Source: Okamejei kenojei
Taxonomy: Eukaryota
NCBI GenBank assembly: GCA_035221665.1
Contig: CM069162.1
Coordinates: forward strand, 23,560,001 to 23,624,000
Length of the DNA stretch: 64,000 nucleotides
Direction of reading: 5' to 3'
Position numbers and translations under genes: made by a program. The notes under the pieces were generated by a model. The model saw only the letters and a list, made by a program, of their open reading frames with translations. It made no database searches and was not told the origin of the DNA. Positions 1 to 45,397 of this stretch are shown here, piece by piece (the stretch's first letter is position 1; every line of letters starts with the position of its first letter).

Positions 1-1479
1 GTTAGTTCAAGAATAACGCGGCTACGATCCCAGGAAAAATCCCATTCAGACTGCACTGGGATTGTTCAGGGAATTAGTTTAGTGCCTCAGCTGCAATAAA
101 TGCTGCATTGAGTATATTCAGTTTAACAGTAGATTTCTCAGTGTGCAACGATAATAGAAATCAGTGGGAAACAGAGGCATCCTAACCTTAAATGGTCCTT
201 ACGTAATGGCCACAGTCTGATTTTATGCATGTGTGATTTGTGGCAATGATACTGGTTTGCCATACTCCAAACATCTTGAACATCTTGCATTGGGTCACTC
301 AAAATGCATTTTTTTTTAAAAGTAGAGCAATAAACACATAGCAAAATAAACATGCAACTTCATTGAAAAATAATGGCTAATATTTAGTTGGTCTACCTTC
401 ATATCGTTACAGCCATGAAGGCTGAAAATGTTTTAAAGTAAAGAGTTGCAGAGCCAGCTATTGAACACCAAGGGTCCCCAGACAGTTGACAGCAACAGAT
501 GGTCGAAAGGGAAGTGCTTGGCACAGATCACTACGCACGAGGAAGTCTGTGGTAATCATTTGCGCTTTGCTGTTAACCACAAACTCTGGGCCACAACTGT
601 TTGTTTTGTGCTCATCTCTCTGTAGGTCTTGAGCACACATAACCAGACAATTAGAAGAGTCACAGGTGGAACTTATTTCAGTAGTTTAATTAGCTATTTC
701 TGATAGGGATTTAGTGCCAAGTAATATCAGCTAGTTGAAGAGATCGCTGGCAAACAGACTGAATGCACTTGAGTGGATAGATTGAAGATTGAATGCTAGA
801 AGAAAAAGGCAAGTTCAACCTAGCCCCAACCAATGAAGTTCCATTATTAAACCAAGATGGGACTGAATGAATTTTAACACCAACTTCTCCTACTCAATGT
901 ATAGTGATAGAGACTTCACCCATAGCATATTGCTAAGTTAATGTTGAACTAACTTAAAATGTATTGAAGCTTTGCCTGCAACTTACAGCAAACAGCGCAT
1001 TTAACCTAACAAGTCTGAGGTGGTATACACAGTAAACTTAACTCCACTACATCCACCTCTTCCCATTTCCAGACATACAGCTTTGATCCAATCATGCATT
1101 CCATTAACACTTAGCTCAAAACAAATGTAGTCATATAGCTACAATTCCTAGTACTTAACCATTCAACTGAACAAATGTTGCCTCATAATTATCTATTGGT
1201 GAATCACGGACAAATGTACACAGAATCCTACCTTTATCAAGCATCGTCTCAAGCGCAGACTGAAAAAAAATGCCAACATGTCAACCTATGTATTACCTGG
1301 TACCCACAGGATTTAAATGCGGTGAACACACCCACAAAAGGCTTATGACATTTTGAATTTTTAAAAACATATCCTCACCCACAGGGGGAAGAGCTGAGCA
1401 GAATCATTTCTTAAGCTACCAGCCTGTGAGTAAAAACCAAGACAAAAGTGGTCACGTTGATGGGAGGCACTAATGAAAA

Positions 1480-2608: not shown

Positions 2609-2735
2609 TGTAGGAAGGAACTGCAGGCGCTGGTTTACACCAAAGATCGAGACAAGATGCTGGAGTAACTTAGAGCGACAGATAGCATCTCTGGAGAGAA
2701 GGTATGGGTGATGTTTCAGGTCAAGACCGTTCTTT
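2609..2735 (-). mobile_element. Diverged PLE-end short element
   Basis: aggaaggaactgcag...ctggagtaac...gtttcaggtcaagacc; flanking direct repeat agtgaactg (2600-2608 and 2736-2744). Confidence 0.75.
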
Positions 2736-4283
2736 AGTGAACTGAGCAGCAATCTTCCTCCATATGACAGCCAAGATTAGAAGAACGGAGAAAAGTGACA
2801 CAAACTACCATAACACCTATGAATGAATAATTCAAACTGGTTTTGTGTCTTTTTCCAACTTTGATGTTTCTGAGTGCAACTACTGGTGGGTACACATTTC
2901 ACTACACCAATCGGCGAATGTGACTAATAAAGAACCTTTGATACCTAATAAATTATGAGTGCACTTCAAATGAAATTAAATGCAGAAGATTTACAGGGTA
3001 TGCTACGATGTGAAAGGCAAGCAGAATAAAATCTCACCCAATGCCTGAATAGTGTTGCTCTAATGTCTCCGTGTAAAAAGGAACACACAGCTTTAAAAAT
3101 AAAACCCCCAATGAGTTCAACGTGAGCAAGAGGTATTTTCGTCTGCGTGGGAAAGATTTTCCCAGGCAAGTGAATGCTTCCGACTCAGCACTTCCTCAGT
3201 GAAAGATATAAATCAATCAATTTCTTGCATTTCACTCCCCACCATTGTTCATTTTTCACTCCCCACCACAAGCAGTTAATAGAAATTGTAGCACAAAGCC
3301 CAGGTCTATCTGAAACTTATTCTACAACTACCCAAGTGTATGCAAAAAATTCACTTTCAGTGACCATGGCTAACGACTCCATGTGAAAACTAGAAGTCAT
3401 AGATAAAACTGTCCTCAAGATCAGATGGGAAGATCCATATTGTGGTTCCAGCAGGGTGGGGATTGTGGAGGTGGAGGCAGAAGTAGCAAGATTTTCTTTC
3501 AGTCAGACCACCATCATCAGCTTGATTAGACCCCCATAATACATTCCAAAAGTCAAGAAAACTCTTCCAGTGCTCCAAGATCTATTTATCCACAATTACC
3601 GGAAAAAGATTTACGTTCATATCACATTACTGCAGTTTTTTGGCGGGAGAGTTTCCACATAAATTTGCTTCATGTTACTAAGTACCTGATGTGTGACTAT
3701 CATTGTGAAAGTAATAGGCGTTCTGAAATCCTGGAGTTGTAAAAGGGCATGAAATTAGAACATTTCAATTAACAACTTTTGTCACAACCAACAGAAAATT
3801 GTTACAATGCTTACAGTGGTTGAGAGGGTGGGGTGCTTAAATTCTCAAATTAAACTATTACAGAGCTTTGGAATCTTCCATATTTACATGCTGGAACCCA
3901 ACGTACAAGCAGCTATGCTGTAACATGATAGCATCAGTCTCAAGAAAGCAAAATTATAAAAATTCCAGTCCAGACAATGATAATTGGATAAGACGATAAG
4001 GATTCTGGCAGAAATATACACCAAATAGTCGAGTTGCATCTCAAAATGAGAACTACTAATGGGTCAAAAGACAACTAGCCTCTCTCTCCCTCTCATACTC
4101 ACTTTATGCCACCACAGGCAACCCAAGTATTTGGGAATTCTCAGCCAATAATTCATCAATTTGTAAATTAGGTCAAGTCTGTACTCACTGCAGCACTTTG
4201 CAATATCTTTATAACTGGGGAAGTACAGAGTAGGAAGAAAACCTCAGACAAGCTAGAAACAATTAAAGCTACTGACATACTAA

Positions 4284-4950
4284 AGGCCCTGTCCCACTTA
4301 CGTGTCCTAGGTATGCAAATTACGCAACCTCGTCACGGCATCGCGTGGCCGCGCGTGGCCGGTCGCACTGAGAAGCGCGGAGGGGTATGGAGTTGTGCGC
4401 TGTATCGCGCGGCACTCCGAAATTTTGTAGCGAACGAAATCTACGAGCGCCACCGGCCTGTCGCGTAACTGACGAACAAAGTGGGACAGGCCCAAGACCC
4501 TGGCGCGACGCAACGTCTCACCTCCAACAGCAGCAGAAGCATGCAAACGATCGTCGAGCATGATGTCGCTCACGGCCGTTGCGGTCCGGATCCGCCCCCA
4601 CTTCTACTCCCAGAGCGGGGCCAAGAAAATTGAAGATAGACACAAAATGCTGGAGTAACTCAGCGGGAACGGCAGCAAATCTGGAGAGAAGGAATGGATG
4701 ACGTTTCTGGTCAAGACCTTTCTTTCAGACTGAAGAAGGGTCTCGACCCTGAAACATCACCCATTGCTTCTCTCCAGAGATGCTGCCGGTCCCACTGAGT
4801 TACTCCAGCATCTTGTGTCCATCTTCAAATTACGTCACACACTCCAGACGGCTGTGCAGATGCATGATGTCGCGCGCGACCGTCGCGCCTCAAAGCAACC
4901 ACGAGATCGCGTAATTAGCGTGCCAAGGACACGCAAGTGGGACAGGGGCT
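4284..4950. mobile_element. PIF/Harbinger-type MITE
   Basis: TIRs aggccctgtcccacttacgtgtcc / ggacacgcaagtgggacaggggct; flanks taa/tta; CpG-rich and non-coding; additional internal TIR-like sequence at about 4479-4493. Confidence 0.78.
4630..4828. mobile_element. Palindromic PLE-end element nested in a Harbinger MITE
   Basis: Two ~99-bp inverted arms centred on ttcag-a-ctgaa (centre 4729), each carrying a degenerate hammerhead-like core. Confidence 0.8.
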
Positions 4951-9721: not shown

Positions 9722-10020
9722 CTTTAGTCTTTAGAGATATAGTGTGGAAACAGGCCATTCGGCCCACCGAGTCCATGCTGACCAGTGACCACCCCGTACA
9801 CTAACACACGTACACTAGGGACAATTTTGACAACTTACTGAAGCCAATTAACCTCCAAACTTGTACTCTTTGGAGTGTGGGAGGAAACCGGAGCACCCAG
9901 TGAAAACCCACGTGATCACAGGGAGAATATACAAACTCGGCACAGACAGCACCCGTAGTCAGGATCAAACCTGGGTCTCTGGCACTGAAAGGCAGCAACT
10001 CTACTGTTGCACAACTGTGC
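9722..10020 (-). mobile_element. tRNA-derived SINE (elasmobranch HE1-like)
   Basis: tRNA-like head with box A/B at the right end, conserved core (ctttggagtgtgggaggaaaccggagcacc) and ggaaacaggcc tail. Confidence 0.82.
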
Positions 10021-11377
10021 ATCCCCCCCCCCCTCCCCTTTGAGGGATACAGCATGGAAACAGCCATTCGGCCCGAAGCATCACTAGCAAGTTCCTAATA
10101 GTTTCCCCATGGCTGCCTTGCACAAAGAACATGATTCCTCTGAGTACTGTTCTCCGCCCCACTCTCCAACATCATATCATTTGCAGCACCACTCTCCGTG
10201 GCTGGAATAATGTTGTTTGTAGGGTATATCCACCCCATTACAGAAACATACAATGTCTACGGCAAAGGAAGTTGTCATTTGGTCCATCGTTCGTTCTGCC
10301 TTTGTGTAAGCAATTTAACTAGCCCAACTCCCTAACCACATAGGTACTGTAAATTATTTCCCTTCAGATGTTACATAACCGCCTCTGAATCTCTTTCCCC
10401 TTAGTTAAATCTATATTGTTTTGTTTTATCTGTCGCTGATATGGGGAAAGGTTTCCTGCAGTCTACAATATCTATACCCCTCACGATTTTTATATAGCTC
10501 AGTTCTTAGCCTACTTCTTAGCCTAGAACAGACCCTGCCTCTCAAACACTCCATCACGGGTGAATCTCCGCTGCACCCAATGGTGTATAAAGTTGAGCAT
10601 AACCTCCCTGGTTTTCTATTCATCTCCCTGACTAATAATGGCCATTATCCTGAGTGGTGAAGTTTTACATTCCTGCCCCTCCAGGACTGCCCTGGAAACT
10701 CCAGGAATTAATCTCCAAACACATTGTGGCAAACTGGTGTTGGTATTATAAGATGCAAGTGACTTTCTTTAATGAGTTACAAAAGTATTAGAGACAGATT
10801 AAAAAGCGTAACATCATCCAAACAGGTAATTATGAGTCTGTTTGGTTTCCAATTGGTTAAGGGAAGATGGGCAATATGCGAGATGTGTAATGATGGGTCC
10901 GTGGCTAGGTCATATTCATCGAGTGATACAGTGTGGAAACAGGCCCTTCGGCGCAACTCGCCTACACCGGCCAACAATGTCCCAGCTACCTTAGTCCCAC
11001 TTGCCTGCGCTTGGTCCATAACCCTCCAAACCTGTGCTATCCTTGGGTACACAAAAAGCTGGAGAAACTCAGCGGGTGCAGCAGCATCTAAGGAGCGAAG
11101 GAGATAGGCGACGTTTCGGGTCGAGACCCTTCTTCAGACTGGTCAGGGATCAGGGAAACGAGAGATATAGACGGTGATGTGGAGAGATAAGGAACAATGA
11201 GTGAAAGATATGCAAAAAAGTATCGGTGATAAAGGGAACAAGCCATTGTAAGCTGTTTGTGGTGTGAAAATGAGAAGCTGGTGTGACTGGGGTGGGGGAG
11301 GGAGATAGAGATAGAGGGAATGCCAGGGCCCGAGGGCTGAGGGAGAGGTGGGAAGGGGAGGAGACAGCAAGGGTTAA

Positions 11378-12595
11378 CAGAATTGAGAAAATTCAATATT
11401 CAAGCCCAAAGGATGCAGACTCCCCAAGCGAATATGAGGTGCTGTTCCTCCAGCTTGCGGTGTTGCTCACTCTGGCCGTGGAGGAGGCCCAGGACCGAGA
11501 GGTCGGATGTGGAATGGGAGGGGGAGTTGAAGTGCTGAGCCACCGGGAGGTCGGGTTGGTTATTGCGGACCGAGCGGAGGTGTTCGGCGAAACGATCGCC
11601 AAGCCTCCGCTTGGTCTCACCGATATAGATCATCTGGCATCTGGAGCAGCGGATGCAGTAGATGAGGTTGGAGGAGGTGCAGGTGAACCTCTGTCGGACC
11701 TGGAAGGACTGCTTGGGTCCCTGAAAGGAGTGGAGGGGGGAGGTGAAGGGACAAGTGTTGCATTTCTTGCGGTTGCAAGGGAAAGTGCCCGGGAAGGGGT
11801 AGAGTGGGAGGGGAGGGAAGAATTGACAAGGGAGTTGCGGAGGGAGCGGTCTTTGCGGAAGGCAGACAGGGGGGGAGATGGGAAGATGTGGCGGGTGGAG
11901 GGGTCACGTTGGAGGTGGCGAAACTGGCGGAGGACTATATGTTGTATTTGCCGGCTGGTGGGGTGAAAGGTGAGGACCAGGGGGACTCTGCCCTGTTTGC
12001 GAGGGGGGGAATGGGGAGCGAGGGCAGTGTTGCGGGGTATGGAGGAGACCCTGGTGCGAGCCTCATCAATAGTGGGGAGGGGAATCCCCGTTCTCTGAAG
12101 AATGAGGCCATTTGTGATGACCTGGTGTGGAACACCTCATCCTGGGAGCAGATGCGGCGTAGACGGAGGAATTGGGAATAGGGGATGGAGTCCTTACAGG
12201 AAGCAGGGTGGGAGGAAGAGTAGTCCAGGTAGCTGTGGGAGTCAGTAGGTTTGTAGTGGATGTCGGTCAGGAGTGTATCACCTGCAATAGAGATGGTGAG
12301 GTCAAGGAATGGTAGGGAAGTGTCGGAAATGGTCCAAGTGTATTTGAGTGCCGGATGGAAGTTGGTGGTGAAATGAATGAAGTCAGTCAGTTGTGTGTGG
12401 GTGCAGGAGGTGACACCAAGCAGTCGTCGATGTAACGGAGGTAGAGGTTCGGGGATGGGGCCCTGGTATGCCGAGAACAAGGATTGTTCGACGTACCCAA
12501 CAAAGAGGCAAGCGTAGCTGGGGCCCATGCGTGTGCCCATAGCTACGCCTTGTGTTTGGAGGAAATGGGAGGAATCAAAAGAGAAGTTATTGAAG
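11378..12595 (-). pseudogene. Second (inverted) copy of PLE RT plus GIY-YIG
   Basis: ORFs 11935..12540 and 11400..11633 mirror the plus-strand copy. This arm extends about 50 nt further 5' (LNNFSFDSSHFLQTQGVAMG). Confidence 0.9.
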
Positions 12596-12606
12596 ATTTA
12601 TTTCCT

Positions 12607-13779
12607 TAGCTATGGGCACACGCATGGGCCCCAGCTACGCTTGCCTCTTTGTTGGGTACGTCGAACAATCCTTGTTCTCGGCATACCAGGGCCCCATCCC
12701 CGACCTCTACCTCCGTTACATCGACGACTGCTTTGGTGTCACCTCCTGCACCCACACACAACTGACTGACTTCATTCATTTCACCACCAACTTCCATCCG
12801 GCACTCAAATACACTTGGACCATTTCCGACACTTCCCTACCATTCCTTGACCTCACCATCTCTATTGCAGGTGATACACTCCTGACCGACATCCACTACA
12901 AACCTACTGACTCCCACAGCTACCTGGACTACTCTTCCTCCCACCCTGCTTCCTGTAAGGACTCCATCCCCTATTCCCAATTCCTCCGTCTACGCCGCAT
13001 CTGCTCCCAGGATGAGGTGTTCCACACCAGGTCATCACAAATGGCCTCATTCTTCAGAGAACGGGGATTCCCCTCCCCCACTATTGATGAGGCTCGCACC
13101 AGGTCTCCTCCATACCCCGCAACACTGCCCTCGCTCCCCATTCCCCCCCTCGCAAACAGGGCAGAGTCCCCCTGGTCCTCACCTTTCACCCCACCAGCCG
13201 GCAAATACAACATATAGTCCTCCGCCAGTTTCGCCACCTCCAACGTGACCCCTCCACCCGCCACATCTTCCCATCTCCCCCCCTGTCTGCCTTCCGCAAA
13301 GACCGCTCCCTCCACAACTCCCTTGTCAATTCTTCCCTCCCTCCCACTCTACCCCTTCCCCGGGCACTTTCCCTTGCAACCGCAAGAAATGCAACACTTG
13401 TCCCTTCACCTCCCCCCTCCACTCCTTTCAGGGACCCAAGCAGTCCTTCCAGGTCCGACAGAGGTTCACCTGCACCTCCTCCAACCTCATCTACTGCATC
13501 CGCTGCTCCAGATGCCAGATGATCTATATCGGTGAGACCAAGCGGAGGCTTGGCGATCGTTTCGCCGAACACCTCCGCTCGGTCCGCAATAACCAACCCG
13601 ACCTCCCGGTGGCTCAGCACTTCAACTCCCCCTCCCATTCCACATCCGACCTCTCGGTCCTGGGCCTCCTCCACGGCCAGAGTGAGCAACACCGCAAGCT
13701 GGAGGAACAGCACCTCATATTCCGCTTGGGGAGTCTGCATCCTTTGGGCTTGAATATTGAATTTTCTCAATTCTGTTAA
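12607..13779 (+). pseudogene. PLE reverse transcriptase C-terminal half plus GIY-YIG endonuclease (frameshifted)
   Basis: AMGTRMGPSYA, YLRYIDD, LPFLD, YKPTD and YSQFLRLRRICS RT/thumb motifs; Cys linker CNRKKCNTC; NLIYCIRCSRC-MIYIGETKRRLGDRFAEH...HF...GLN GIY-YIG domain; split across frames. Confidence 0.9.
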
Positions 13780-14013
13780 CCCTTGCTGTCTCCTCCCCTT
13801 CCCACCTCTCCCTCAGCCCTCGGGCCCTGGCATTCCCTCTATCTCTATCTCCCTCCCCCACCCCAGTCACACCAGCTTCTCATTTTCACACCACAAACAG
13901 CTTACAATGGCTTGTTCCCTTTATCACCGATACTTTTTTGCATATCTTTCACTCATTGTTCCTTATCTCTCCACATCACCGTCTATATCTCTCGTTTCCC
14001 TGATCCCTGACCA

Positions 14014-14045
14014 GTCTGAAGAAGGGTCTCGACCCGAAACGTCGC
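14014..14045 (+). ncRNA. Minimal type I hammerhead-ribozyme-like motif in the PLE 3' end
   Basis: CTGAAGA (14016-22), A, GGGT-CTCG-ACCC hairpin, GAAA, CGTC. This gives the core boxes CUGANGA and GAAA, a palindromic ACGT in place of stem III, and a GUC cleavage triplet. Stem I is only about 2 bp. The mirror copy is at 11108-11139 (minus). Confidence 0.65.
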
Positions 14046-16313
14046 CTATCTCCTTCGCTCCTTAGATGCTGCTGCACCCGCTGAGTTTCTCCAGCTTTTT
14101 GTGTACCCTCGATTCTCCAGCATCTGCAGTTCCTTCTTTAAAACTGTGCTATCCTTGTACCTGTTTCTTAAACTATGGGACAGTCCCAGCCTCAACTACC
14201 TCCTCTGGCAGCTTGTTCCATACACCCACCACCCTCTGGGTGAAAAAGTTACCCCTCGGATTGTTATTAAATCTTTTCCCCTTCACCTTGAACCTATGTC
14301 CTCGATTGCCCTACTCTGAATTTGAATGTTGTATTGAAACATCCACCAATATGGCCAGGTAGGTTTGGGAACTCGGTAAGGATCTGCAATATGGAGGGGG
14401 TTCACCTATACCACCGTGTTCAACCTCAGGAAGATTTGGAGAATCATGTCCCCCCATGTCTGAAATGGCCTGACCCACTGGAGGTTAGGCTGCTTTGAGC
14501 CCCCAACCCAGGGAAGATTAACAGACATTCCAGGCTTGCTGTCCCCGATCCAGGGATTTCTGCTGGTAAGTGGATTCATCTGGTTGTCTTGTGACTCAGC
14601 TATGAAGTCTTGCCCTGTGATTAACCTCTTGTCACTCTCTGAGTGCAGAAACTAACAATAGGCTGGTAATGTGCCAGAGAAACACCACACAATATGATTG
14701 AGTTCGAGTGAAAAAGGACCAAAGTGTATTTGGAAAAGGAATTCCAACAATGTAGAGGCGAAACATTGTGAAAGCTGGAATTCTGAAATTAAATTAGAAA
14801 GGGTTTAAAAGTTTCCAATATTTTCTCTCATTTTTCTAAAAATATGTATAATTAAAATGGTAATAGTTGCACGAAGGAGCTCTGACAAGGTCAGAGTTAG
14901 GACATCATGAACCACCATCTCAACTAAATAGCAAAATGAATGTAAAACCCTATTGCAGGAATTCAAAACACGCTGGTTGTGAATGTTGGCTGAAGTGCAA
15001 TGATAAAGAATTGTTCTCTGCAGAGTAAAGCTAAGTACGTTAGAATTACATAGCACCACAGAATGAAACAACACGGGAGGGTGAACCGGCTTAATGCCCC
15101 CATCGCCTTCAAGGTCGGCTGCAGGAAACGCCCACGGGACACAAAGATGGCCGGACGAGGAGAGGGATGCCGGTTTGCGGTAACTACACCTGCGGACCGT
15201 GCAGTGGGCTGACTGGACTTTGAATAACGGCGTCAAAAATGGCGACGTCTGCATGTGTAATATATGCAAAAAGGAATTTCACTCTGCAGTTGCATGTGTG
15301 ACAAATAAAGCACCTTTGAAGCATGTCCGTGTCAGACTTACGTGGTGTTATTTTGTGATCTCCAGGTAACTATTGAATCACTTTTCCCAGTTACTGTTGT
15401 AATGTAGGATCAGGACATGGGATCTATACACAGCAACTGCCCACAGGCAGCATTGTGATGAAACAACAAAGACTAATCATATTGGTTGAACGATAAGCAT
15501 TGGCCTTTTACACTACTAAGGAGTGACATGGGATCAATTACATCCACCAGGTAGGTAGATAGGTAGGGGGTGTTAGATTCCCCGACTGAAAGAACACACC
15601 TCTGATGTGGGCCAAACATAGGCAGCAAAGCCCCACTTCAGTACAACATTGATGCCACGCAGCTGAGAAGTTTCTAAAAGGGTGCACATGAAGATATCAC
15701 AAGAAGATGTTGCCCCCTCTGGTGTGAGGATCCAGCCGCCATTCTCAACCAGGACTCACTGGTGTCTGTGAAAGTCACCGAAGAATGGGTTCTACCCACC
15801 AGTGCAATCGTGCAGAATGAGTGAAACGATTCTGCAGACTGTTGCACCTCATTCACACAGACCGATACAGAAAACAAGTGATATCAGACAAGGACAGTAG
15901 TCAGGTTTCTAATTTACTTTCACCTGTCACACAAATTCAAAATCAAAGTCGATGGTTTTTGAGCTGTGGCAGGCAATTTCAACAAACATTAGTGAGGAAG
16001 TAATGTGTAAAACTGTGTAAAATAGTTAATTGTTAATAATGCTGCAGTGCATCAGTTCAAGAGAGCCATTGAAATAAGGACGAGTGTTATTGTACCTGGG
16101 TCTCTGGAGAATCCGCTCTTCCTGTGTTTACGGCAGCTTTTGTTTCCAAAGTGCTTTTCATTATGTTTCCCTGACAGTAACATCTGTATCCAGGGAGGCA
16201 AACACTAACCAGAGCTCAGAGGTATCCAGGCTGGTTCACCCCGTGTCGTGCTGTTGGAGTGCCATTGTGAAATGCTGCATCGTGGCCCCATCTACAGATG
16301 TTAAAAATACAGC

Positions 16314-16610
16314 AAGTCAAGTCAAGTCACTTTTATTTCTATAGCATATTTAAAAAACAACTCTCGTTGACCAAAGTGCTTTACATTGGTGGAGGTACTA
16401 ACGTTATACAACATTGGTTCATAGATTAAGTACATACGTATAGCCCTCCCTCAGAGGACGTCAAGAAAGGCTTGAGAGTAAAGATGAGTTTAACTCTTTT
16501 TGAGTCGATGGAGGGGGCAGTTCTGATGGGAAGAGGGATGCTGTTCCACAGTCTAGGAGCTGCAACCGCAAAGGCGCGGTCGCCCCTGAGCTTATGCCTA
16601 GACTTAGGAA
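16314..16610 (-). mobile_element. L2-like LINE 3' fragment
   Basis: (caagt)3 tail followed by tttatt; the minus strand encodes a GDRAFAVAAPRLWNSIP-type C-terminal motif. Confidence 0.7.
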
Positions 16611-16809
16611 GCCAATCATTGTGCTAAACATGACAAATAAATACACTGCTTTTCTGCAATCAGTAAATGTATTATTTGATCGTAGGTGCCACAACTGATG
16701 ATTTTGACAATGAGCTACATCATTTTAAGCCCTATGGCTAAATTAAAATCTCCATCCTCTTTGATTTCCATTGGTCACCAGTTCCTGTTACTGACATGCT
16801 GAGCGGGTT

Positions 16810-17079
16810 GGCATGGTGACACAGCGGTAGAGTTGTAGAGCGCTAGAGACCCGGGTTTGATCCTGACCACGGGTACTGTCGGTACGGAGTCTCTATGTTC
16901 TCCCTGTGACCGCATGGATTTACCCCGGTGCTCCGGTTTCCTCCCACCCTCCAAAGACGTACAGGTTTGTAGGTCAATTGGCTTTGGTAAAGATTGTAAA
17001 TTGCCCCTAGTGTGTAGGATAGTGCTCGTGTACAGGGATGGCTGGTTGGCCCGGACTCAATAGGCTGAAGGCCCTGTTT
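16810..17079 (+). mobile_element. tRNA-derived SINE
   Basis: ggcatggtgacacagcggtagag...ccgggtttgatcc head and the same core as the other copies. Confidence 0.82.
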
Positions 17080-17402
17080 AACAAATAACTATTTGCCAGA
17101 TTTGTAATTAGTTCCTCCCAGTGTCAGCTGTGTTTTTGCATTCCAAAACTCTGCAACACTTGGAGATATTTTGGCCTTCAGGATAGACATCGTAATTTGT
17201 ATGTGATTTGGCTTCAACTTGTAAACTATCACGCACTGCTGAGATTTTAAACATCTCTCAGTGGGAGATGTCAGGATGGGGGGGGGGGGGGGGGGGGGTG
17301 ATGTGTGTGTGCGCGGGAGGTGTTTGTGGGCTTAGGAGTGTGTGCGTTTGGGTGAGGTGCTTGTGGGGGGCAGCCAGCAAGAGTGTTGATTATCGTCCAT
17401 GG

Positions 17403-18438
17403 TTTAGTTTTTTAGTTTAGTGATGCAGCACCGGAACAGGCCCTTCGGCCCACCGAGTCCGCACTGACCAGCGATCCCCGCACACTAACGCTATCCTACG
17501 CACACTAGGTACAACTTACACTTAGGGGAGCTCCCCCTCCCATCACCCCACTCACCATCAGTCACATCTGTGGAGTCTTTTAAGTTCCTGGGAACCATCA
17601 TCTCCAAGGACCTTAAGTGGGGGGCTACCATCGACTCCACAGTCAAAAAGGCACAACAGAGGATGTACTTCCTACGGCAGCTGAGGAAGCACAATCTGCC
17701 ACAGGCAATGATGGTCCAATTCTACACGGCCATCGTAGTCTGTTCTCACCTTCTCCATCATGGTCTGGTTTGGCTCAGCCCCAGCACGACACTGGAGGCT
17801 GCAGCGAATCGTCGATCAGCAGAGAAGGTTATTGCTGCAACCTTCCCTCATTGATGAACTGTACACTGCAAAGGCCAGGAAGCGAGCAGCAAGATCATCT
17901 CTGACCCTCTCACCTGGCCACAAACTCTTGAATCACTTCCCTCTGGAAGGCGACTCCGGATTGTCAAAGCTGCCACAGCCAGACATAAAAACAGTTTTTA
18001 TCCACGAGTAGTTGCTCTACTCAACAGCCAAAAATCTGTAGCCTCCCTTTGATCTGGTATTTTGTTGGTTTGCATGCTTGATCAATGGTGTTTTATCATT
18101 AATGTTTTATTATTATTAATGTTTAGTGTTTTCTGAATCATTCGCAACTGTCACTGTATGTCCTGTTGTTACTTGTGGGCAGAGCACCAAGGCAAATTCC
18201 TTGTATGTGAATACTTGGCCAGTAAACTTACTTACTTACTTACTTACTTGTACCAAGCCAATTATTCTACAAACCTGTACATCTTTGGAGTGTGGGAGGA
18301 AACCGAAGATCTTGGAGAAAACCCACGTGGTTGCAGGGAGAACGTACAAACTCCGTACAGGCAGCACCGTAGTCAGGATTGAACCAGGATCTCGGACGCT
18401 GTAAGGCAACAACGGTACAGCTGCGCCACTGTGCTGCC
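17403..18438 (-). mobile_element. tRNA-derived SINE split by a LINE insertion
   Basis: Tail at 17403-17522 and head/core at 18251-18438 are contiguous in the family consensus seen in the other copies. Confidence 0.78.
17523..18250 (+). mobile_element. Rex1/Babar-type LINE 3' fragment inserted in a SINE
   Basis: FKFLGTIISKDLKW...KKAQQRMYFLRQLRK RT C-terminal motif, frameshifts and a 3' (ACTT)n tail. The SINE halves lie at about 17403-17522 and 18251-18438. Confidence 0.8.
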
Positions 18439-19797
18439 CATGTTGCATATTTCTGTTTTCACAACTGACATAGGAGGAGGCCGTAGAGCCTATCGAGCCC
18501 TTCCCAGCTTGCTCTAAGTTTCCTATTATCTATTCCCCCTACATTTCCAACACTTACCCACACTCTGAAGGCAATTTAAAACGGCCAATTGACCCCCAAA
18601 GCACACACATCTTTGGGATGTGAGAGGAAATTGATGAAGTCACATGAGAACATGCAAACTCCACACAGGCAACAGTGGAAGTCAGGATTGCACAAGATTG
18701 GTGACGCAGTGAAGCAGCATCTCTGCTCGCTGCTAATACAAGTGTCCATCTGGGCCACTTTAGTTGGACCAACCATGGTGACATGAAGAAGTGTTTTGAC
18801 CAAAACATCACCCATTCCTTCTCTCCCGAGATGCTTCCTGTCCCACTAGTTACTCCAGCAATTTATGTCTGTCATGGTGACATGAATCTGGAGTTAGGCA
18901 GAGACCCTAACAAGACGTTTGTCCAAAGGTCACTCCGGCAACCAGCTGGGTTCGCAACTGGTTACTTCTACTGATGACTTTTATTTCCAAATTTATCTTC
19001 AACCAAATTTAGTTCCCAAACTGGATTTTAGCTAAGGTTTTTTATCCAGGAATTAACCCACAAATACTGAGCTATTTTTTAATAATCTGAATCTCACCTC
19101 AAGAATTCAAAGTCAGTAAATTTTAATAAATACCTGTTTGGGAATTTTTTGTACTGACTGCCTAGCCTCTTTATTTTCCATTCTCTCATGCACCAAAGTA
19201 GATTATCTGTTTCTCAATGCAGTGAACATATTGCTCATAACAATTCCAAAGAGCAAAAATTCTGTAAACACTGTCATGATTTAAAATGCAATTGAACACC
19301 TCAAATGTCTTTGCAAATGGAAATCTATTGATTTCCAACTCACCTCCAGGTTTGTCTTTCACTCGCGTTTTGACATGCAGAGCTCAAGTCTTCATGTTTC
19401 TTCACCTTTTCATCTCGTCCCACGGCATCCGAAACTTGCTTTTGAAGGTATTTGTTAGCATTGAGCATAACTAAACCACCTCACGCGTCCGAAACCGAGA
19501 TTTCCCCTCATTCCGACAGAGTGAATAACCAGAAACAGTTTCAAGTGAGAGGACAATCATGCATCATGATTAATTTTACAATAGATTTAAGATAAAGAGC
19601 AAAAGAAGCAGTGTGTCATGCAATCATTGTTTAACAGAGTAAACTGATCTGGACTGTGCTGCCAGAAAAGTGGAAGGATTTAATAGTAACTTACTTGAAT
19701 AGTTAAATACTTGAATGGAAAGTGAAAACCACTATTATCGAGCAAGAGCTAGAGATTTTAGGTTAGATAATACATAAACAATGGGCCAAAAGATAGT

Positions 19798-19925
19798 TTT
19801 AAAGAAGGAACTGCAGATGCTGGAGAATCGAGGGTACACAAAAAGCTGGAGAAACTCAGCGGGTGCAGCAGCATCTAAGGAGCGAAGGAGATAGGCGACG
19901 TTTCGGGTCGAGACCCTTCTTCAGA
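19798..19925 (-). mobile_element. 128-bp PLE 3'-end insertion with hammerhead-like motif
   Basis: Essentially identical to 14015-14142; flanked by 12-bp TSD ccaaaagatagt (19786-19797 and 19926-19937). Confidence 0.88.
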
Positions 19926-21221
19926 CCAAAAGATAGTCTTTGATTCTAGCGGGGTGATTTTAAATTAGTTCTCAAGGCATGACACTTTACCAGTGGGAAG
20001 TGAACACAGCGCCAATTTTACAGCTGATCTAGACATGCTAATCTATGGAGCAAATCCATCACTGCACCCAGTGTCACCAGCCTCCTGATGGGCAGATTAG
20101 GCCCCGACTTCTCACTGTGTCACTTGACGGGTATGCAATTTGTGCTGATATGGTATATCACAATGCTATGCAATTTAATTATACCGCTCGCAACTTTGAT
20201 GTTCATATGTTTCAGATGTTATCAGATGTGTAACCTAATCGTGGCGCCAATTAATTGGAGGGAGGAGGGCTTTCTGGGCCAGTGCTAACGACATGTTTTC
20301 TGACAATCATGCCAACTGAAGTCCAGACATGGCCACTCCCAACTAGTGGAACAGGCATCAGCTTCTACCAATGCCACACTACCAGCAGGCTATGTGTATC
20401 GTGGTTTGAAGTCCAAAAGCAAATGAACAACCTCAAACGTCTTTGCAACTGGAATGATATCCAACTCACCTTCAAAGGTGTCTTTCTCTCTTGTTTTGAT
20501 AGGTTGAACTCATGGCACTCTCGTTACATTACCTGCACACAGCATCATTGTAAAGGGGATGATAAAGGGATTTGTGAGTACGTATCGCAGAATATTATAG
20601 ATTGCTTCCTGATGTTACTCGCGAATGATTAAAAAACTTGATCTAGATTCCCCCACACGAGGAAATGATATTGCTTGTCATGCGAGTAAATAAATTATTC
20701 AACAGGTAGGACACACTTGCCATCTCCCTCCTTCTCCCGAGGCACTTAATCAGAAACTTCTTCTGACTGCTTTGGATGATTGAAATCCAGTCCAGGCGAA
20801 TAACTGGTATCATGAGAAACATTCTTTGTCATGCCTTATCTTCTGGAGCAGGCCTGGCTTGAAGGCCAGTCAGTGCTCACCATATCAGCTGGCAACACAT
20901 CTCACAGACACAGTACTCTCTCACAAAACAGATTCTCAACGCAAGCTGACATTTTATACATATCATGTGTTATAGTGGCTGTTGGATTAGTAAAATGTTA
21001 ACAAAGGAATCCCAATGACACTACTGGTTCCTGTATAAAACTAACCGCCATGTAGCTCAAGAACTAGATTAGAAGCGACAACATTAGAAATAACACAACA
21101 GAGCTGTGGATAAACTTTTATCTGTCACACGGTTCAAAATTACATTTCCATTTAACATTTGGGCTGCACTCATTTTGTCTTCCTTCAGCCAGCTTCAGTC
21201 GTACCAATGAATGCTTTTGGA

Positions 21222-21510
21222 GCAGGAGTGGCACAGAGGTAGACTTACTGCCTTACAGCGCCATGGACCCAGGTTCAATTCTGACCACCGGCGCTGTCTG
21301 TATGGAGTTTGCACGTTCTCTTTGTGACCGCGTGGGTTTTCTCCAGGTGCTTCTGGTTTCCTTCCACACTCCAAAGATGTACAGATTTGTAGGTTAATTG
21401 GCTTCTGTAAATTGTCCATAGTGTGTAGGATAGTGCTAGTATACAGGGCGATTGCTGGTCAGCGCAGACTCGGTGGGCCGAACGGCCTGTTTCTGCACTC
21501 TATCTCTAGA
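21222..21510 (+). mobile_element. tRNA-derived SINE
   Basis: gtggcacagaggtagac...ggttcaattctgacc head, core, and tail ending tatctcta. Confidence 0.82.
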
Positions 21511-23444
21511 GTCAGTCAGTCTGCAAGCCCCTGATGAAGTAGCCAAGGTTGAGTTGGCTGCGTCGGACTCTCTTCGAAGTTTACTCACTCTGTGAATGCC
21601 CCTTATTGGTGAGATTATTGTAGCGCCATGCCAAGCCAAATGTTCAGCGCCTCCGTTGTTCCTTGTGTTAGTTAGCAGTTTCGAATGGTCTGTTTTATAG
21701 ATGAGGCAAGGTGAGTTTGTGGTTCCGACTGTCATTTCTGCCGGTGAACTGAATATCCAGCGGCTGGTGGACAACATGCTGAGTTAGCCTCCAATATTTC
21801 ACTGTACATTTTCGCAGCTCTGATACGTCGTCCTGTCCGGGCTTGCTGCAGCCAAAATGGCGGGAAGATGACCAACGTGGCCTGAACCCTGTAGCCTTGA
21901 AATAAGACAATACAATTAAGAAGGAGGAGAATCAAAAAGTGAAATGTCTGATTTAATTACGGCTCCTTTCGACAGCAATGCTGTTCAGTCCGAGTGACCA
22001 AAAAAGTCCAGCACTGTACCTCCACCAATCAGTACCACCTTTTGATTCACTGCTTTATTCAGGTAAAGGTTATAGTAATCCTTCTATTGCTGGGCAGATT
22101 CCAGTGCCCACATTTGTCTTCAATGTTCCAGGTTTTGTCCTTTGCAAAGGTGTAAGAACCAGGTCTGCCATTTTATTTACAGTTGAAGTGAGTGCTTTCC
22201 ACCTTATTTTGGTGGAAAGTTATTTTGTCCATCTTTCATTGCTCCTAGCCACGTTTCTAGGAGTTAGCCTGTTCTGTAGGAGGCCAAGCTAACGATTCAA
22301 CCTCCAAGAACAACAATGTGCTTGAACTACCTTGAGGAGGGAAGCAAACACTTGGGGTGACATCTCGTCTGTAGTTAACTCTTCCAGAGTAAATAATGCC
22401 AGTGGAAGATGAGGCAGTCCCACAGAGGTGGGAGGACCTGGCTGGAAAAGGACATACACTAGTCCTGTGATACTGAATTGCCTACATTGTAGGTAGAGGG
22501 AGGCACAAACGGAAATTAGACAATTACCCATTGAGACAATGACAGAGAGAGACAATAACAAAGTCAGACATTTAACCATATACCTGTGCAGGATCAACTG
22601 TGTGCAGCCAAACGAGTATTTATTTCATTGGCCACAGAAAAGCACGGGACCATGGCTGAGCAGAAACTGAGAGACACTACTGAGGACTAACTACAGCCAT
22701 AAAACTAAATCTGATGGTCAGTCTGTGCTGTGCGGGAAAAAGGTCAACCTGATCATGATCCACAGCCTCTTATGGTAAAAGGGACACATGGTGGTGAGAG
22801 CAGGAGTCGCTTAACAGCCTGCTGACCTTCTTCATCATGGCCCTCTGAAGAAGGCAGAGTTATTAACCTTCCAGGATTGTGCACGTGCCCCCATAAATCA
22901 CCCACCAATTGATGGTACACCGTGATTAACTAGGGAGGTAATAAATAAAATGGATACCTTTCATTTTCCTTGATATCAATTTTCCTCATTAGCTAAAGAT
23001 ATATTGGATCTGGGATACAAAGATATTTGATTGTAGCAACGATGGAGAACAGAACAAACCTCCAGGCACCATCAACTAGAGGTGGAACTCTGGAGCCAGG
23101 TGAGGGGTGAGAGGAGACTGAAGTTACACGCAACTGGGAAAGAGTAATGGGGAAGTTGAGCGCCAGTAAGGAGACATTTCAGGGATGGGGAAGAGCAAAC
23201 AGTAAGATCGGGTGAGGGAAGGGAAAGTCTAGAGAAGGAAAAGGAAGACCAATGACAGGAAAGTGATATCCAGGGAAGAGCAATAATAAAACGAAACAGG
23301 AAAGAAACCAGAATGAAATGGTTTGATAACCAATCCATTGGAGGGCACCTTGGTGCCAAGAGTCAAAAGGTTGTCCAGAGAACGAGAAAGTTAGCAAGTA
23401 TCAAACGATATATATATTCAGAAATAAATTTAACAAACTAACAT

Positions 23445-28742: not shown

Positions 28743-29746
28743 CTGAAGGAAGAGAGGGGAACAAAAAGAATAAAATTATGTCACCGATATTGGAGCCAAT
28801 TTACAAACCAAGGACACGTCAAAAAAAGGAATAACCAGTAACATTGTTGGTTAATAGGTAACAATAGTCGGGAAAGGCTTCAATCATGGAATGATGTCGC
28901 ACAGAAAGAGGCTACTCAAGTCTTTATATTTACAAGACAACAACTCTGTTTGAAAAATTTGTGCAAATTACATGGTTATCATTATCATGGCATGGAGTGA
29001 TGCGATCAGTTACACTTTAACCTATGTGACCCTGGTCTCAAATCCCAAGACTGGTACAATTAGATCTGCAATCGTACAGGCAGCAGGATAATATCCCAAG
29101 ATTACTAATCCGTCAAGGATACGATCAAATTGATGATCATCACCATGAATTTGACTTCACTTAAAAAAAACTGGAAGTAGACGTAATTATGAAAGCTTGT
29201 AAATTCATAAGTTCTAGGAGCAGGATAAGGCCATTCGGCTCATCGTGTCTACTCTACCGTTCAATCATGGCTGATCTATCTTTTCCTCTCAATCCCATTC
29301 TCCTGCCATCGCCTCATAACCCCTGACACCTGTACTAATCAAGAATCTGTCAATCTCCGCCTTAAAAATATACGTTGACTTGGCCTCCACAGTCGCGTGT
29401 GGCAATTGTTGTAAAAGTAAATCTTCTGGGGATCGTTAGGGAAGTAAAGTTGGCCCACATGTGACCAATCCCAGCTCAACACAGGTGATGCTTGCTGGCC
29501 TTCTGAAGTCAGGAGTGCTGTCAGAACGTTACTGCAATACTACACCACAGCATCTCAATGATCCAGGCATGGGGAGATGAGAAATAGATGCTGGACATCG
29601 GGTTGACCAGGCACTGAGCTCAGATCTAGCCCACAATGGGGGAATGAACCCTGGTACCTGCAGGAAATAGAAACAAACTTCCAAGATGCCATTGCAGGTA
29701 AAACTCGGGGGGGGGGGGGCAAAGTCATACTGGTATAAATAAGATA

Positions 29747-31357
29747 CAGTGGCTTGCAAAAGTTTTCATACCCCTTGAACTTTTCCACATTTTGTCACGT
29801 TACAACCACAAACGTAAATGTATTTTATTGGGATTTTATGTGATAGACCGACACAAAGTGGCGCATAATTGTGAAGTGGAAGGAAAATGATACATGGTTT
29901 TCAAATTTTTTTACAAATAAAAACTGAAAAGTGTGGAGTGCAAAAGTATTCAGCCCCCTTTACTCTGATACCCCTAAATATAATCCAGTGCAACCAATTG
30001 CCTTCAGAAGTCACCTGATTAGTAAATAGAGTCCACTCGTGTGTAATCTAATCTCGGTATAAATACAGCTGTTCTGTGAAGGCCTCAGAGGTTTGTTAGA
30101 GAACATTAGTGAACAAACAGCATCATGAAGCCCAAGGAACACACCAGACAGGTCTGGGATAAAGTTGTGGAGAAGTTTAAAGCAAGGTTAGGTTATAAAA
30201 AAATATCCCAAGCTTTGAACATCTCACGGAGCACTGTTCAATCCATCATCCGAAAATGGAAAGAGTATGGCACAACTGCAAACCTACCAAGACATGGCCG
30301 TCCACCTAAACTGACAGGCCGGGCAAGGAGAGCATTGATCAGAGAAGCAGCCAAGAGGCCCATGGTAACTCTGGAGGAGCTGCAGAGATCCACAGCTCAG
30401 GTGGGAGAATCTGTCCACAGGACAACTATTAGTCGTGCACTCCACAAATCGGGCCTTTATGGAAGAGTGGCAAGAAGAAAGCCATTGTTGAAACATGAGA
30501 AGTCCCGTTTGCAGTTTGCCACAAGCCATGTGGGGGACACAGCAAACATGTGGAGGAAGGTGCTCTGGTCTGATGAGACCAAAATCAAAGTTTTTGGCCT
30601 AAATGCAAAACGCTATGTGTGGCGGAAAACTAACGCTGCACATCACCCTGAACACACCATCCCCACTGTGAAACATGGTGGTGGCAGCATCATGCTGTGG
30701 GGATGCTTTTCTTCAGCAGGGACAGGGAAGCTGGTCAGAGTTGATGGGAAGATGGATGGAGTCAAATACAGGGCAATCTTGGAAGAAAACCTGTTAGAGT
30801 CTGCAAAAGACTTGAGACTGGGGCGGAGGTTCACCTTCCAGCAGGACAACGACCCTAAACATACAGCCAGAGCTACAATGGAATTGTTTAGATCAAAGCA
30901 TATTCATGTGTTAGAATGGCCCAGTCAAAGTCCAGACCTAAATCCAATTGAGAATCTCTGGCAAGACTTGGAAAATTGCAGTTCACAGACCCTCTCCATC
31001 CAATCTGACTGAGCTTGAGCTATTTTGCAAAGAAGAATGGGCACAAATTTCAGTCTCTAGATCTGCAAAGCTGGTAGAGACATATCCCAAAAGACTTGCA
31101 GCAGTAATTGCAGTGAAAGGTGGTTCTACAAAGTATTGACTCAGGGGGGCAGAATACTTTTGCACGCCACACTTTTCAGTTTTTTATTTGTAATAAAATT
31201 TGGAAACCACGTATAATTTTCCTTCTACTTCACAATTATGCGCCACTTTGTGTTGGTCTATCACATAAAATCCCAATAAAATACATTTACGTTTGTGGTT
31301 GTAACGTGACAAAATGTGGAAAAGTTCAAGGGGTATGAAAACTTTTGCAAGCCGCTG
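29747..31357 (+). mobile_element. Tc1/mariner DNA transposon, Passport-like, full length (1611 bp)
   Basis: TA TSD (29745-46 and 31358-59); ~210-bp IR/DR-type TIRs beginning cagtggcttgcaaaag, with an inner repeat gtgcaaaagtattc; internal transposase gene. Confidence 0.96.
30125..31139 (+). pseudogene. DD34E Tc1 transposase with one late frameshift
   Basis: Paired-like HTH, GRPPK, WSDETK, FQQDNDPKH and SPDLNPIE (34 residues between the second D and E). An extra G near 30970 shifts the C-terminus (KIAVHR...KGGSTKY*) into another frame. Confidence 0.93.
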
Positions 31358-34324
31358 TAATTGTATGTTTTTTATAGCATACTGGAGGCAAAACAAACAG
31401 AGCTGCTTGAAGACTCTGTACCATCCAATCCTGTAATTTGAAAGCTGTTTGCCACTAAGCAGCTGTGGGAAGGCGGACACCACGACAATTTATAGGCCTG
31501 ACGAGCGACGGCTGGAATGGGGTGGAATTTATTTTTCTGCACTGAAACCTTCAAGAATATTTCCATCAGGCCTGGCAACCCTCATTCTTAATGAACTTAG
31601 ACCTATGGCAAAAAAAAAAATCCTGCTCATAAATTGGCAATGTCACGGGCATTGGATCGTGGGTAGTTAGCACTGAATATAATGACTTACTCATGTAGAA
31701 ATATGAATTCTTCTGAAAAACAGAGGGGGCTAAATTGGATGGTCCTCAAAAAACCTGCATGGTGATCTTTTGTAGTCTGCTATTTGTGTTGTCTGATAAT
31801 TATAACAAATTCAGTCTGCAGCCCAGATGGGAGTTATCCTTTCCATTAGCAGGGATCCAATTTTGTGAGTGGCTAGCACCAATTAAGACAAGGCTATGCT
31901 ATTTTAAGTCAACTTGTGCCTGTTGAAGGGGAGGCATTCTGAGGCAGGAGCTGATGTGTATTCTGCATCAGACCTGGGAAACATTTAAGAGTGGCATGGC
32001 AATGAAGGGAGCATACTCTGGGGCTCTCCTGTGTTATAATGAAGGCCCGGGTCCAGGTAATGGAGGGGAGGGAGGTCCTGTTTCTGAAGGGGCTTGCAAT
32101 AAAGGGTGGGTTGAGGGGGTGGGTGCTCCCCTAGCCTCATACAGAAGGCAACAAGTACACATTGCGGTGGGAGTCAACGCCAAGATTCAAGCATTGAGTA
32201 CTTGAATCCTGTCGTAAGAACGTTGATGCTGCTTCACGTCAACAATCAAAGTCTGAATGCATCTTAAAATGCCATCAAAAGCACCAGCAGCAGCACACAG
32301 TTCTCAGTGCACCATATCCGTATCACTCACTCATCAGCAACTTTGCACGATCAAACCTGGAGCCTATTATTCATAATCTGTACCACATTCCCCAACACTT
32401 GGCGCAACTCATCTCATAGCTTGCACACACAGCAGGTTTTTTATTTGTAGCTAGACTATCCAAATAGATCACATTGTGCTGAGGCACATTCCTCTCTATC
32501 ACAGGACAAGGAAGAGTGCACAGTCAGGGCAACAGCTAACCAGCAGGGGTAAAGTGCCATTCCATCATCGTGTTGCCTCACAGAAGCCTGCAGAACATCA
32601 CCAGTGTGAGAGTTACTGAGTCTGGGGGACGATGGGGGATATGGAGAGGGAAGACCGTGGAGGAAGATAGTGACCTCATTCTCAATCTTCCAATTCATAG
32701 CATCCCACAATCAAACATAGTCTTTCTCTCCCTGTCCTTCCCACCCTCTTTCATTTGTAAAGTTGTCCATTCTGACAGCCAAAAGGTGCATGGAGAGTAA
32801 GAATCGAGTGTTGGTCAAGGCACATTTGTGGATAGTTTGGCATTCACAACCAATAGCTCAGTGCGCAGCAATGCAGGGAACTTGGGGATGAATGTGGAAG
32901 CAGAGGGTATGTACGCTGGACACTGGACTTGCAGCAAAGGCCAAGCAGAGGAGAATGAGGTTCTGAAAGAGCTGAGTTGCACATGCCATAGATGAGCATT
33001 TGGATGGGGCTTGTACAGCTGCTGTGGTCAGATGATATGGACAATGAATGCAATGACAGGTTTGTGAGAAACCCATGCGGAATCAGCAATGCGGCAGCAA
33101 CTGGCAGCACCTCAAAGGAACTCTAGCGCAGGCAAATACGAGCGGAGCAACTGAACAAAGGCAATACAGCCAAGTCGTGAGTTAACGTTTGTCAGCAATT
33201 TGTCAGATTTTGATTTCTAAGTTTGGAATTTTTATTTTATAATTACCTTTGTTTAAGAAATGTCGCAAGCAGAGGCTATGAGGGAAGGTATGACATGGGT
33301 TGTTGGTGAATGGAAAATGTAGTTGGCATTTATTGGTGAAGTGGGCCGGTGGCACGTAGGCCAGGCAGAAGTGGGCTTGTGTTCTCGTGTGGACCCATCT
33401 GCTGCCCAATGTACAGCTTCACCACTATTCTGTCAAGGCTCTGGAGCATGCAGGAAATTATCACGAATCTCGAGTCAACAGGGTGCCTTACCACGTCTCT
33501 TGTGACATGGCGTTCATTCAATGTGCATTGCCCTACCTTTGAATGGATTGTGCATTGATATTCCTTGTCATAAAGTAGTTACCCTCTGGTTTGCTATGGA
33601 GACTCCGAAACATGTTATTTCTGGACAGCATCGGAATGAATACCTTTTGACTGGTGCCAGGAGATCAGGCATCAACCTGCATAATGTGCCGTGCTTAGTC
33701 GCAAACTAGCTGCAAACGAGGGACTGGAATCCCTTTGGATTTGTGCCGTTGGCACCTTCAAGTCAACGTGCCCATTGTCAGTGGCACTCTGTGTCATGGG
33801 GAAGCTGCAAATCTCCCAAAGCTGTTAGTTTGCTCTTACTGTTGGCGTCTGCCCAGAGGGAATGAAATGCACTCAACCTTTCTGGATTAGAGTGTATCAG
33901 TGACCTACCTCTCCCTTGTGCAGCAATGGTCAGCAGGCTGAGAGGTGTTGCAAATATTTCTTGCCTTAGCCTTAAAGGAATCGCGCCCCTAAAATGTCAT
34001 AGCCACAATGACTTAGACAGCAACTGGCAATGTGATCCTCAGCATACTTTGCTAGTGGGGTGGTGATATTTATTAGTGAGCTGATCCTTAATGAAGCACC
34101 AGTTTCCTCACACACACTGGCCATCCATGAGATTGAGCAAGCAGAACTGTACTCAGGGTTAATCTTTGCACAAGAGCTCTTATCCCTTCCTTCTCCCCCT
34201 TCTTCTGACAGCTCTTCCACCCCCCTCTTCTGAACCCACTGCCTGTTCTCTGAGTCACGCTGCATTCCAAAATATGTACCAAAACCCTGTTGATTTGCTA
34301 ACAGTCAAGATACAGTTTTTCAGC

Positions 34325-37387: not shown

Positions 37388-37692
37388 GACCACACGGTGG
37401 CGCAGTGGTAGAGTTGCTGTCTTACAGCGCCAGAGAACATGGTTCAATCCTGACTGCAGGTGCTGTCTATACGGAGTTTGTACGTTTTCCCCATGACCTG
37501 CGTGGGTTTACTCCAGGTGCTTTGGATTCCACCACACACTCCAAAGACGTACAGGATTGTAGGCTAATTGGGTTGGTAAAATTGTAAATTGTCCCCAGTG
37601 TGTGTAGGATAGTTAGCGTGCTGAAATCGCAAGGTCGACGCAGACTCAGCTGCCTGCAGAGCTTGTTTTCGCGCTGTATCTCTAAACTAAAC
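37388..37692 (+). mobile_element. tRNA-derived SINE
   Basis: cacggtggcgcagtggtagagttgctg...ggttcaatcc head; tail ctctaaactaaact. Confidence 0.85.
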
Positions 37693-45207: not shown

Positions 45208-45397
45208 CTTGAAATGTCACCTAACCCGAAATGTCACCTATTCCTTTTCTACAGAGATGGTCTGAAGAAGGGTCTCGACCCGAAACGTCACCTCTTTCCT
45301 TTGCTCCATAGATGCTGCCTCACCCGCTGAGTTTCTCCAGCATTTTTGTCTACCTTTGGTGTCTGACCTGCTGAGTTACTCCAGCTTTTTGTGTCTA
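45208..45397 (+). mobile_element. Two nested PLE-end elements
   Basis: A copy starting gtctgaagaagggtctcgacccgaaacgtc (about 45260-45356) interrupts an older same-orientation copy. Confidence 0.7.

Follow-up and report, generated by a model that had tools for sequence, protein, structure and literature searches.

Penelope-like elements (PLEs) of the EN+ Neptune type encode a reverse transcriptase (RT) and, at the C-terminus, a GIY-YIG endonuclease (EN) separated by a Cys-rich linker, the latter a named feature of EN+ PLEs (PMC8557442), and their pLTRs contain a minimal hammerhead (PMC8557442, PMC4209133). Copies of these elements are described as having a tail of 30-40 bp at one end, inverted and partial-tandem structures, and hammerheads that are mostly single dispersed motifs, and the cited parts of these sources describe 5' truncation with no fixed point (PMC8557442, PMC4209133). 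The mode of PLE copying, the origin of the partial tandems and the role of the hammerhead have been presented as open questions (PMC2377424, PMC8557442). Circles made by the ribozyme were proposed earlier for PLEs (PMC4209133), and transcription of Penelope starts inside the pLTR (PMC2377424). In another clade, represented by Poseidon_Ac of the green anole, reverse transcription in vitro was initiated internally at two sites bounding the tail, the substrate was uncleaved RNA, and no RNA ends were located at the ribozyme cut (PMC11167929). The starts mapped in the cited parts of that work are those of RT rather than RNA 5' ends, and run-off stubs or template jumps are unreported there. Two further systems are relevant. 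Animal non-LTR retrozymes are short, non-coding and pLTR-derived with a type I hammerhead motif, occur in tandem, and are processed by the ribozyme into linear and circular RNAs (PMC7229834; bioRxiv 10.64898/2026.07.22.740005). The non-LTR elements R2, L1 and SVA start at the RNA 3' end; the cap is reverse transcribed as a G at full-length L1 and SVA insertions and R2 jumps end to end, RT finishing the 5' end and continuing on another 3' end (PMC2912911; PMC11371274).

Here we describe a 128-bp insertion in a 64,000-nt stretch of Okamejei kenojei DNA (the window) and the genome-wide family of short copies, or stubs, to which it belongs. The element shares with the Neptune PLEs the RT with C-terminal GIY-YIG and Cys linker and the hammerhead pLTR; it differs in that more than half of the sampled copies start within 15 nt, with an extra G and joints to A-tailed 3' ends. 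Two 3' ends bounding the tail, approximately 90-130 nt downstream of the hammerhead, and the lack of ends at the cut are shared with Poseidon_Ac, in which the ORF starts in the hammerhead rather than at approximately +163 as found here. Unlike retrozymes, the stubs are dispersed and flanked by TSDs, their starts precede the cut by 25-35 nt, and the multimers have variable joints not made at the ribozyme. In contrast to R2, L1 and SVA, the most frequent insertion here would be a short run-off product of internal initiation. Truncated solo pLTR copies that bear a hammerhead are already known, and the stub is a known kind of debris. A literature search of mostly open-access papers revealed no report of PLEs whose 5' boundary is fixed at the hammerhead core, of a cap-derived G, or of cap-to-A-tail jumps in PLEs. 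The object is of an ordinary kind, and the proposed mechanism behind it is informative and apparently undescribed.

Results

The 128-bp insertion and its parent element

Element positions are numbered from the C of CTGAAGA (window 14016) as position 0, with the predicted ribozyme cut between +27 and +28. The insert at 19798-19925 on the reverse strand is the exact reverse complement of 14015-14142, letter for letter, and 132 of 132 positions were aligned by blast when the microhomology was included. An earlier note on this DNA had described a near-exact copy with a perfect 12-bp TSD, a 5' end 1-2 nt before CTGAAGA and recent activity. The TSD was confirmed, the identity is in fact exact, the first base of the insert precedes CTGAAGA by 1 nt (by 2 nt when the G in common with the TSD is included), and the view of recent activity held. 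The predicted GUC cut thus lies 28-29 nt downstream of the start. The coordinates of the features are listed in Table 1.

Judged from sequence, the insert comprises the pLTR and tail from the end of a Neptune-type PLE, and the element is an EN+ PLE that is tentatively assigned to Neptune rather than Nematis by linker and vertebrate host. RVT_1 and GIY-YIG were detected in that order on locus L151 and the window; L151 holds a full-length partial tandem whose tail continues into the unique 5' region. RVT_1 was found with E=2.6e-6 (L151) and GIY-YIG (PF01541) with E=2e-3 (L151) and E=4e-4 (window copy, under the curated cut-off), the scores of both domains being just short of the Pfam cut-offs and obtained on frameshifted pieces. 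The C-x4-C-x2-C linker is present between RT and EN in the window ORF. Partial-tandem and inverted structures, the hammerhead pLTR and a tail of 30-40 bp at one end were all found (L151; 13 of 13 inverted pairs single-tailed). The main ORF begins at approximately +163. An upstream open frame that runs from the pLTR (+52, window 14068 onward) in the 5' copies overlaps the start of the main ORF in another frame.

The features of minimal type I PLE hammerheads (CUGAnGA, an unpaired base before helix II, a G-C closing pair, GAAA, a palindromic helix III and NUH) can all be read at 14016-14043 in this predicted motif. Helix I is of 2 bp in both subfamilies of the element, short of the 4-5 bp expected for the type; a 2-bp helix I has been described for Drosophila Penelope (PMC4209133). 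An Rfam scan of window positions 10900-20100 returned no hammerhead family at E<=10.

Table 1. Positions in the window of the insertion, the neighbouring PLE and related copies.
Feature	Position	Strand	Evidence
128-bp solo pLTR+tail insertion of Penelope-like element (-1..+126)	19798..19925	-	identical to reverse complement of 14015-14142
TSD copy 1, 12 bp	19786..19797	.	perfect match to copy 2
TSD copy 2, 12 bp	19926..19937	.	edge G possibly common to element position -2
Minimal hammerhead motif: CUGAAGA, unpaired A, 4-bp helix II, GAAA, palindromic ACGU, predicted cut after GUC; helix I 2 bp	19897..19924	-	read from sequence against cited parts of PMC4209133
Tail of ~34 nt between 3' ends +92 and +126, two putative internal RT start sites	19798..19831	-	bimodal 3' ends, 64 vs 36 (n=100); analogy with PMC11167929 (cited parts)
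Inverted PLE insertion consisting of a head-to-head pair of 5'-truncated arms	11046..14143	.	14-bp TSD at 11032-11045 / 14144-14157
Left arm, tailless, ends ~+92	11046..12594	-	11045-11139 matches 19832-19926
Right arm, ends +127: RT C-terminus, C-x4-C-x2-C linker, frameshifted GIY-YIG endonuclease, 3' UTR, pLTR, tail	12595..14143	+	ORFs; PF01541 E=4e-4
Start hot spot -7..+7; putative transcription starts 14018 (+2, major) and 14013 (-3)	14009..14023	+	start counts; pyrimidine-purine steps only at -7, -3, +2
Older head-to-head pair of short copies joined at hammerhead core	4633..4825	.	sequence comparison
Tailless 95-bp copy, 90% alike, starts at -2, inside older copy	45260..45354	+	sequence comparison
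Old tailed short copy, 71% alike, starts near core	2614..2737	-	sequence comparison

Distribution of copy ends in the genome

The 28-mer 3' of the ribozyme had 47,187 exact matches in the 2.76 Gb searched, while the reversed control had none. Starts were surveyed in 100 position-sampled copies, all within the first 5 Mb of one contig (C1). Fifty-five of these start at -7..+7; the raw count was 56, and one hit was dropped as a long sister-subfamily copy whose 3' UTR differs upstream of -4. The next 15 nt upstream contain a single start, and the hot spot is used at about 190-fold the upstream per-base rate. The other copies were truncated between -8 and -1408 (27), passed the end of the reference (4) or started beyond +7 (13, of which 12 are inverted arms). 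No start was found at the ribozyme cut (+28) in the 100 copies, with one inverted arm at +29. A second sample of 55 distinct copies, for which sequence 3' of the tail was the sole basis of selection (5'-region copies), comprised 13 with starts at -7..+7, 13 that start further downstream and 29 that start upstream, and again none at the cut (+27..29). The 5' boundary that the earlier note had taken as non-random is thus a genome-wide pattern, with clustered rather than uniform breakpoints, and its argument that self-cleavage fails to explain the boundary agrees with the absence of starts at +28 in both samples. The copies that it listed at about 2735, 4729, 6148, 9612 and 45260 do begin near the core and belong to older related subfamilies (~70-90% alike), those at 6148 and 9612 having decayed so that their starts are approximate.

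The 3' ends of the 100 copies are bimodal, 64 near +92 and 36 near +126. The 55 hot-start copies consist of 33 solo copies (10 tailed, 23 tailless), 20 inverted arms and 2 tandem copies. A TSD of at least 9 bp (9-25 bp) flanks 16 of the 33 solo copies, compared with 1 of 1056 mismatched flank pairs. Rough scaling gives ~5,000 solo 128-bp and ~11,000 solo 95-bp copies genome-wide. Tailed and tailless copies have a common range of starts, and the starts of the solo stubs are spread over ~12 nt rather than forming two peaks. Every abutting head-to-head pair (13 of 13) is composed of one tailed (+126) and one tailless (+92) arm. On contigs of related organisms, loose ends were found at the same three boundaries.

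Several additional features were observed among the copies. Eight of the 55 5'-region copies (L155, L169, L173, L177, L181, L183, L157, L314) begin at -151..-189 in a C-rich stretch, which may reflect another boundary, stalling or a start site further upstream. Two inverted stub junctions recur with identical flanks, one at ~17 of 90 loci (L204, L205, L207, L213, L214, L224-L226, L240, L247, L252-L256, L273) and the other at ~6 of 90 (L187, L192, L195, L237, L246, L258), and are therefore carried inside other amplified repeats. The sister subfamily (L123, L124, L127, L129, L131, L138, L151) has a different and shorter 3' UTR (-191 to -5) with the same ORF and pLTR. Splicing was considered as the cause of apparent jumps to -4 in long copies and was rejected, these copies being the sister subfamily with the other 3' UTR.

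Joints, A-rich linkers and the extra G

When copies of the second sample were followed to their ends, 11 joints were identified in 52 copies. At a joint the element breaks off and is followed by a short A-rich linker and a restart at the hot spot, ending at +92 or +126, and in several cases a TSD encloses the whole. Seven of the 11 break off at +570-580, a position that was not selected for, and the others at +283, +296, +627 and +2526. A search with one joint as query, which had no G and a -1 start, raised the set to 33 non-redundant joints with element ends mostly at +570-590 and A-rich linkers of 0-34 nt. A G immediately precedes the restart in 24 of the 33 joints and is lacking in 9; all 17 restarts at +2 carry the extra G where the element has T. 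Since no two loci have both end and linker in common, each joint arose separately. The successive joints of three multimers differ in 3' end and linker (575/579, 580/578 and 590/580), which points to jumps between molecules and not to one ligated circle. The joints listed from contigs of related organisms included none of the GT..AG type.

The extra G was also found where starts are joined to genomic DNA, before 11 of 17 starts at +2 (p=0.006) and before 34 of 71 non-duplicate starts at -3 (p=0.002; 92 reduced to 71 by removal of 21 duplicates). In the unselected sample the excess of G relative to long truncations, 20/46 vs 5/19, was not significant (p=0.27). A raw-row count of the bases before -3 (38 G, 42 A, 20 T) was set aside as misleading because two amplified composite repeats inflate A. 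Pyrimidine-purine steps occur in -9..+8 only at -7, -3 and +2. Pol II favours pyrimidine-purine steps. None of 13 polyadenylation hexamers is present at +500..600, the region of the end near +575 (+570-590).

The hot-start copies of the second sample were also considered as full-length elements. This was rejected after 11 of the 13 were followed to the end, 9 being permuted units with a joint and 2 having internal deletions but reaching the 3' pLTR. At L325-L352 (e.g. L319 1211-1879 as oriented, L335, L340, L341), a ~575-nt segment of the element forms permuted units of ~680 bp and multimers, connected by A-rich linkers with the extra G, which implies that a discrete short transcript exists that is A-tailed and lacks a polyadenylation hexamer. 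At L153 (2595-3695 and 6773-7776, reverse strand), an element that by eye looks DIRS-like, with RT, RNase H-like and recombinase-like frames, is split by the PLE.

Discussion

Proposed copying mechanism

The reading that we favour, with a probability of about 0.72, is that the boundary represents the capped 5' end of the element RNA, and that RT would start internally, run off the cap and then either integrate or jump to an A-tailed 3' end. We infer that the hot spot is a Pol II transcription start and the extra G the copied cap; by analogy, initiation would be internal as shown in vitro for the anole PLE, a precedent from the Poseidon clade (PMC11167929). Transcription would start in the pLTR (+2 or -3), which places the RNA end at or within the hammerhead core; the protein would nick the target and begin reverse transcription inside the RNA at +92 or +126. 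From the 5' pLTR, the RT would reach the cap after 95-130 nt. Joining of the cDNA to target DNA with a TSD would then yield a 95- or 128-bp solo stub, and priming of both strands an inverted pair with one arm from each start site. Alternatively, the RT would jump from the cap onto a second element RNA at its A-tailed 3' end, in most cases that of a transcript terminating at +570-590, to generate the permuted ~680-bp units and the multimers. Longer copies would need a read-through RNA with the 3' UTR ahead of the pLTR, and since 29 of the 55 5'-region copies reach further upstream than the proposed start, read-through RNAs would also have to be used. A head-to-tail array of full units with a period of 4072 bp (L324, G000:C24 23309500-23319499) is a candidate source of such RNA.

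The boundary is likely the capped start of the element RNA, at or inside the ribozyme, and the stubs are therefore likely by-products of copying rather than a separate ribozyme element. Their sequence stops at the initiation site, and they probably give rise to no further copies. The data point to a putative discrete small RNA of ~575 nt and not of 128 nt. Since an RNA that begins at +2 would lack the first two bases of the core, its 5' hammerhead would be inactive, and only a downstream copy in read-through RNA could cleave. A more specific scheme has about even odds: a transcription start inside the hammerhead core would disable the 5' ribozyme, a capped and A-tailed RNA of ~575 nt would be made, a 'strong-stop'-like cDNA would be the commonest insertion, and cap-to-tail jumps would build the permuted and multimeric copies. 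A homologous strong-stop transfer that retains the cap G was considered and is unsupported; among the first 100 of 137 matches, the T at +1 was replaced by G in 12, by A in 40 and by C in 48, so that G was not in excess.

Other origins of the boundary and of the stubs

A caveat for the assignment of the hot spot as a transcription start is that the CAG at -4..-2, following a pyrimidine tract, resembles a splice acceptor. The best-surviving alternative, which we regard as unlikely, is that the boundary is a 5' end made by processing or an RT roadblock on a longer RNA, caused by a splice-acceptor complex sitting on CAG|T, by the footprint of a protein or by cleavage where a core-tail hairpin has its base. 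The CAG and its pyrimidine tract are kept in both subfamilies despite their different UTRs, the intron of Drosophila Penelope ends at helix I (PMC4209133), and the position -151..-189 at which eight 5'-region copies begin could be an upstream start. A predicted fold pairs +1..+10 with the tail, but its stability is not significant (z=-1.61, with 15 of 200 shuffles equally stable). A roadblock does not predict the G that replaces T before all 17 restarts at +2, and a plain strong RT stop, as offered in the earlier note, is disfavoured by the end-to-end joining of the boundary to A-tailed 3' ends with the extra G, as is expected of a physical RNA 5' end. Moreover, the stubs have no common exon sequence upstream, tailed and tailless copies have the same start range, and the stopping rate at the site is not constant between the two samples (55/87 vs 13/42, p=0.0007).

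It is distinctly improbable that the stubs are a self-propagating non-autonomous family, SINE-like, with an internal promoter and mobilised in trans. Their very high copy number and the putative start within the stub would suit such a family, as would the internal promoter elements of Penelope (PMC2377424), and its 3' flanks would be hidden by internal RT initiation. However, no stub-specific lineage was detected: the 3'-side haplotypes of the stubs match those of the long and 5'-region copies (chi-square p=0.61; 55 stubs vs 56 long copies over ~56 nt, a comparison of low power), and only one haplotype, seen twice, is confined to stubs. The 5' ends are varied and the 3' ends are two, and the stubs stop at the initiation site, beyond which RNA was needed by the anole protein (PMC11167929).

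That the stub is a retrozyme monomer, a ribozyme-cut and circularised RNA of ~130 nt copied by the PLE protein and akin to the self-standing 128-nt retrozyme-like unit proposed in the earlier note, is hardly credible and largely refuted: the stub does carry a minimal hammerhead motif, and the retrozymes of animals are pLTR-derived, with monomers among them (bioRxiv 10.64898/2026.07.22.740005), but unit ends are not set by cleavage (0/100 and 0/55 starts at +28), helix I does not exceed 2 bp, tandem repeats with a hammerhead each are limited to 2 of 55 hot-start copies, stubs have two lengths and haplotypes in common with long copies, and the joints of multimers differ from each other and sit at +570-590/+2, away from the cut. 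Six short pieces (L206, L222, L257, L260, L266, L072) extend from the start to ~+21..+35 directly before a second start, one of them fitting +27; they could be paused short RNAs or 5' products of the ribozyme.

Implications

With transcription from a capped start and internal RT initiation as the preferred reading, the stubs are likely to reveal how jumping genes of this class, which are poorly understood, are copied. The family has very young copies by the tens of thousands, in which each copying step is recorded in the junctions, and these give exact, testable coordinates for the RNA start (+2, -3), the RT starts (+92, +126) and the 3' end of the short transcript (+570-590). The results argue against ribozyme cutting and circles as makers of these copies. 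If the start within the hammerhead core and the cap-to-tail jumps are true, the junctions would constitute an in vivo fossil record of PLE tandem formation with neither ribozyme cleavage nor circular RNA. Many of the dispersed 'minimal hammerheads' or 'retrozyme monomers' of vertebrate genomes may likewise be run-off by-products and not elements of their own.

Other repeats in the window

The inverted PLE sits inside a dispersed repeat (10917-11045 and 14158-14303) that matches 58256-58537. SINE-like repeat families are present elsewhere in the window at 9723-10004, 16812-17079, 21228-21511, 37393-37694 and 57528-57770, and at 1636-1863, 29204-29407, 43937-44185 and 50756-50967. Two 215-bp inverted repeats (29745-29958 and 31145-31359), 95% alike and bounding ~1.6 kb, possibly belong to a DNA transposon.
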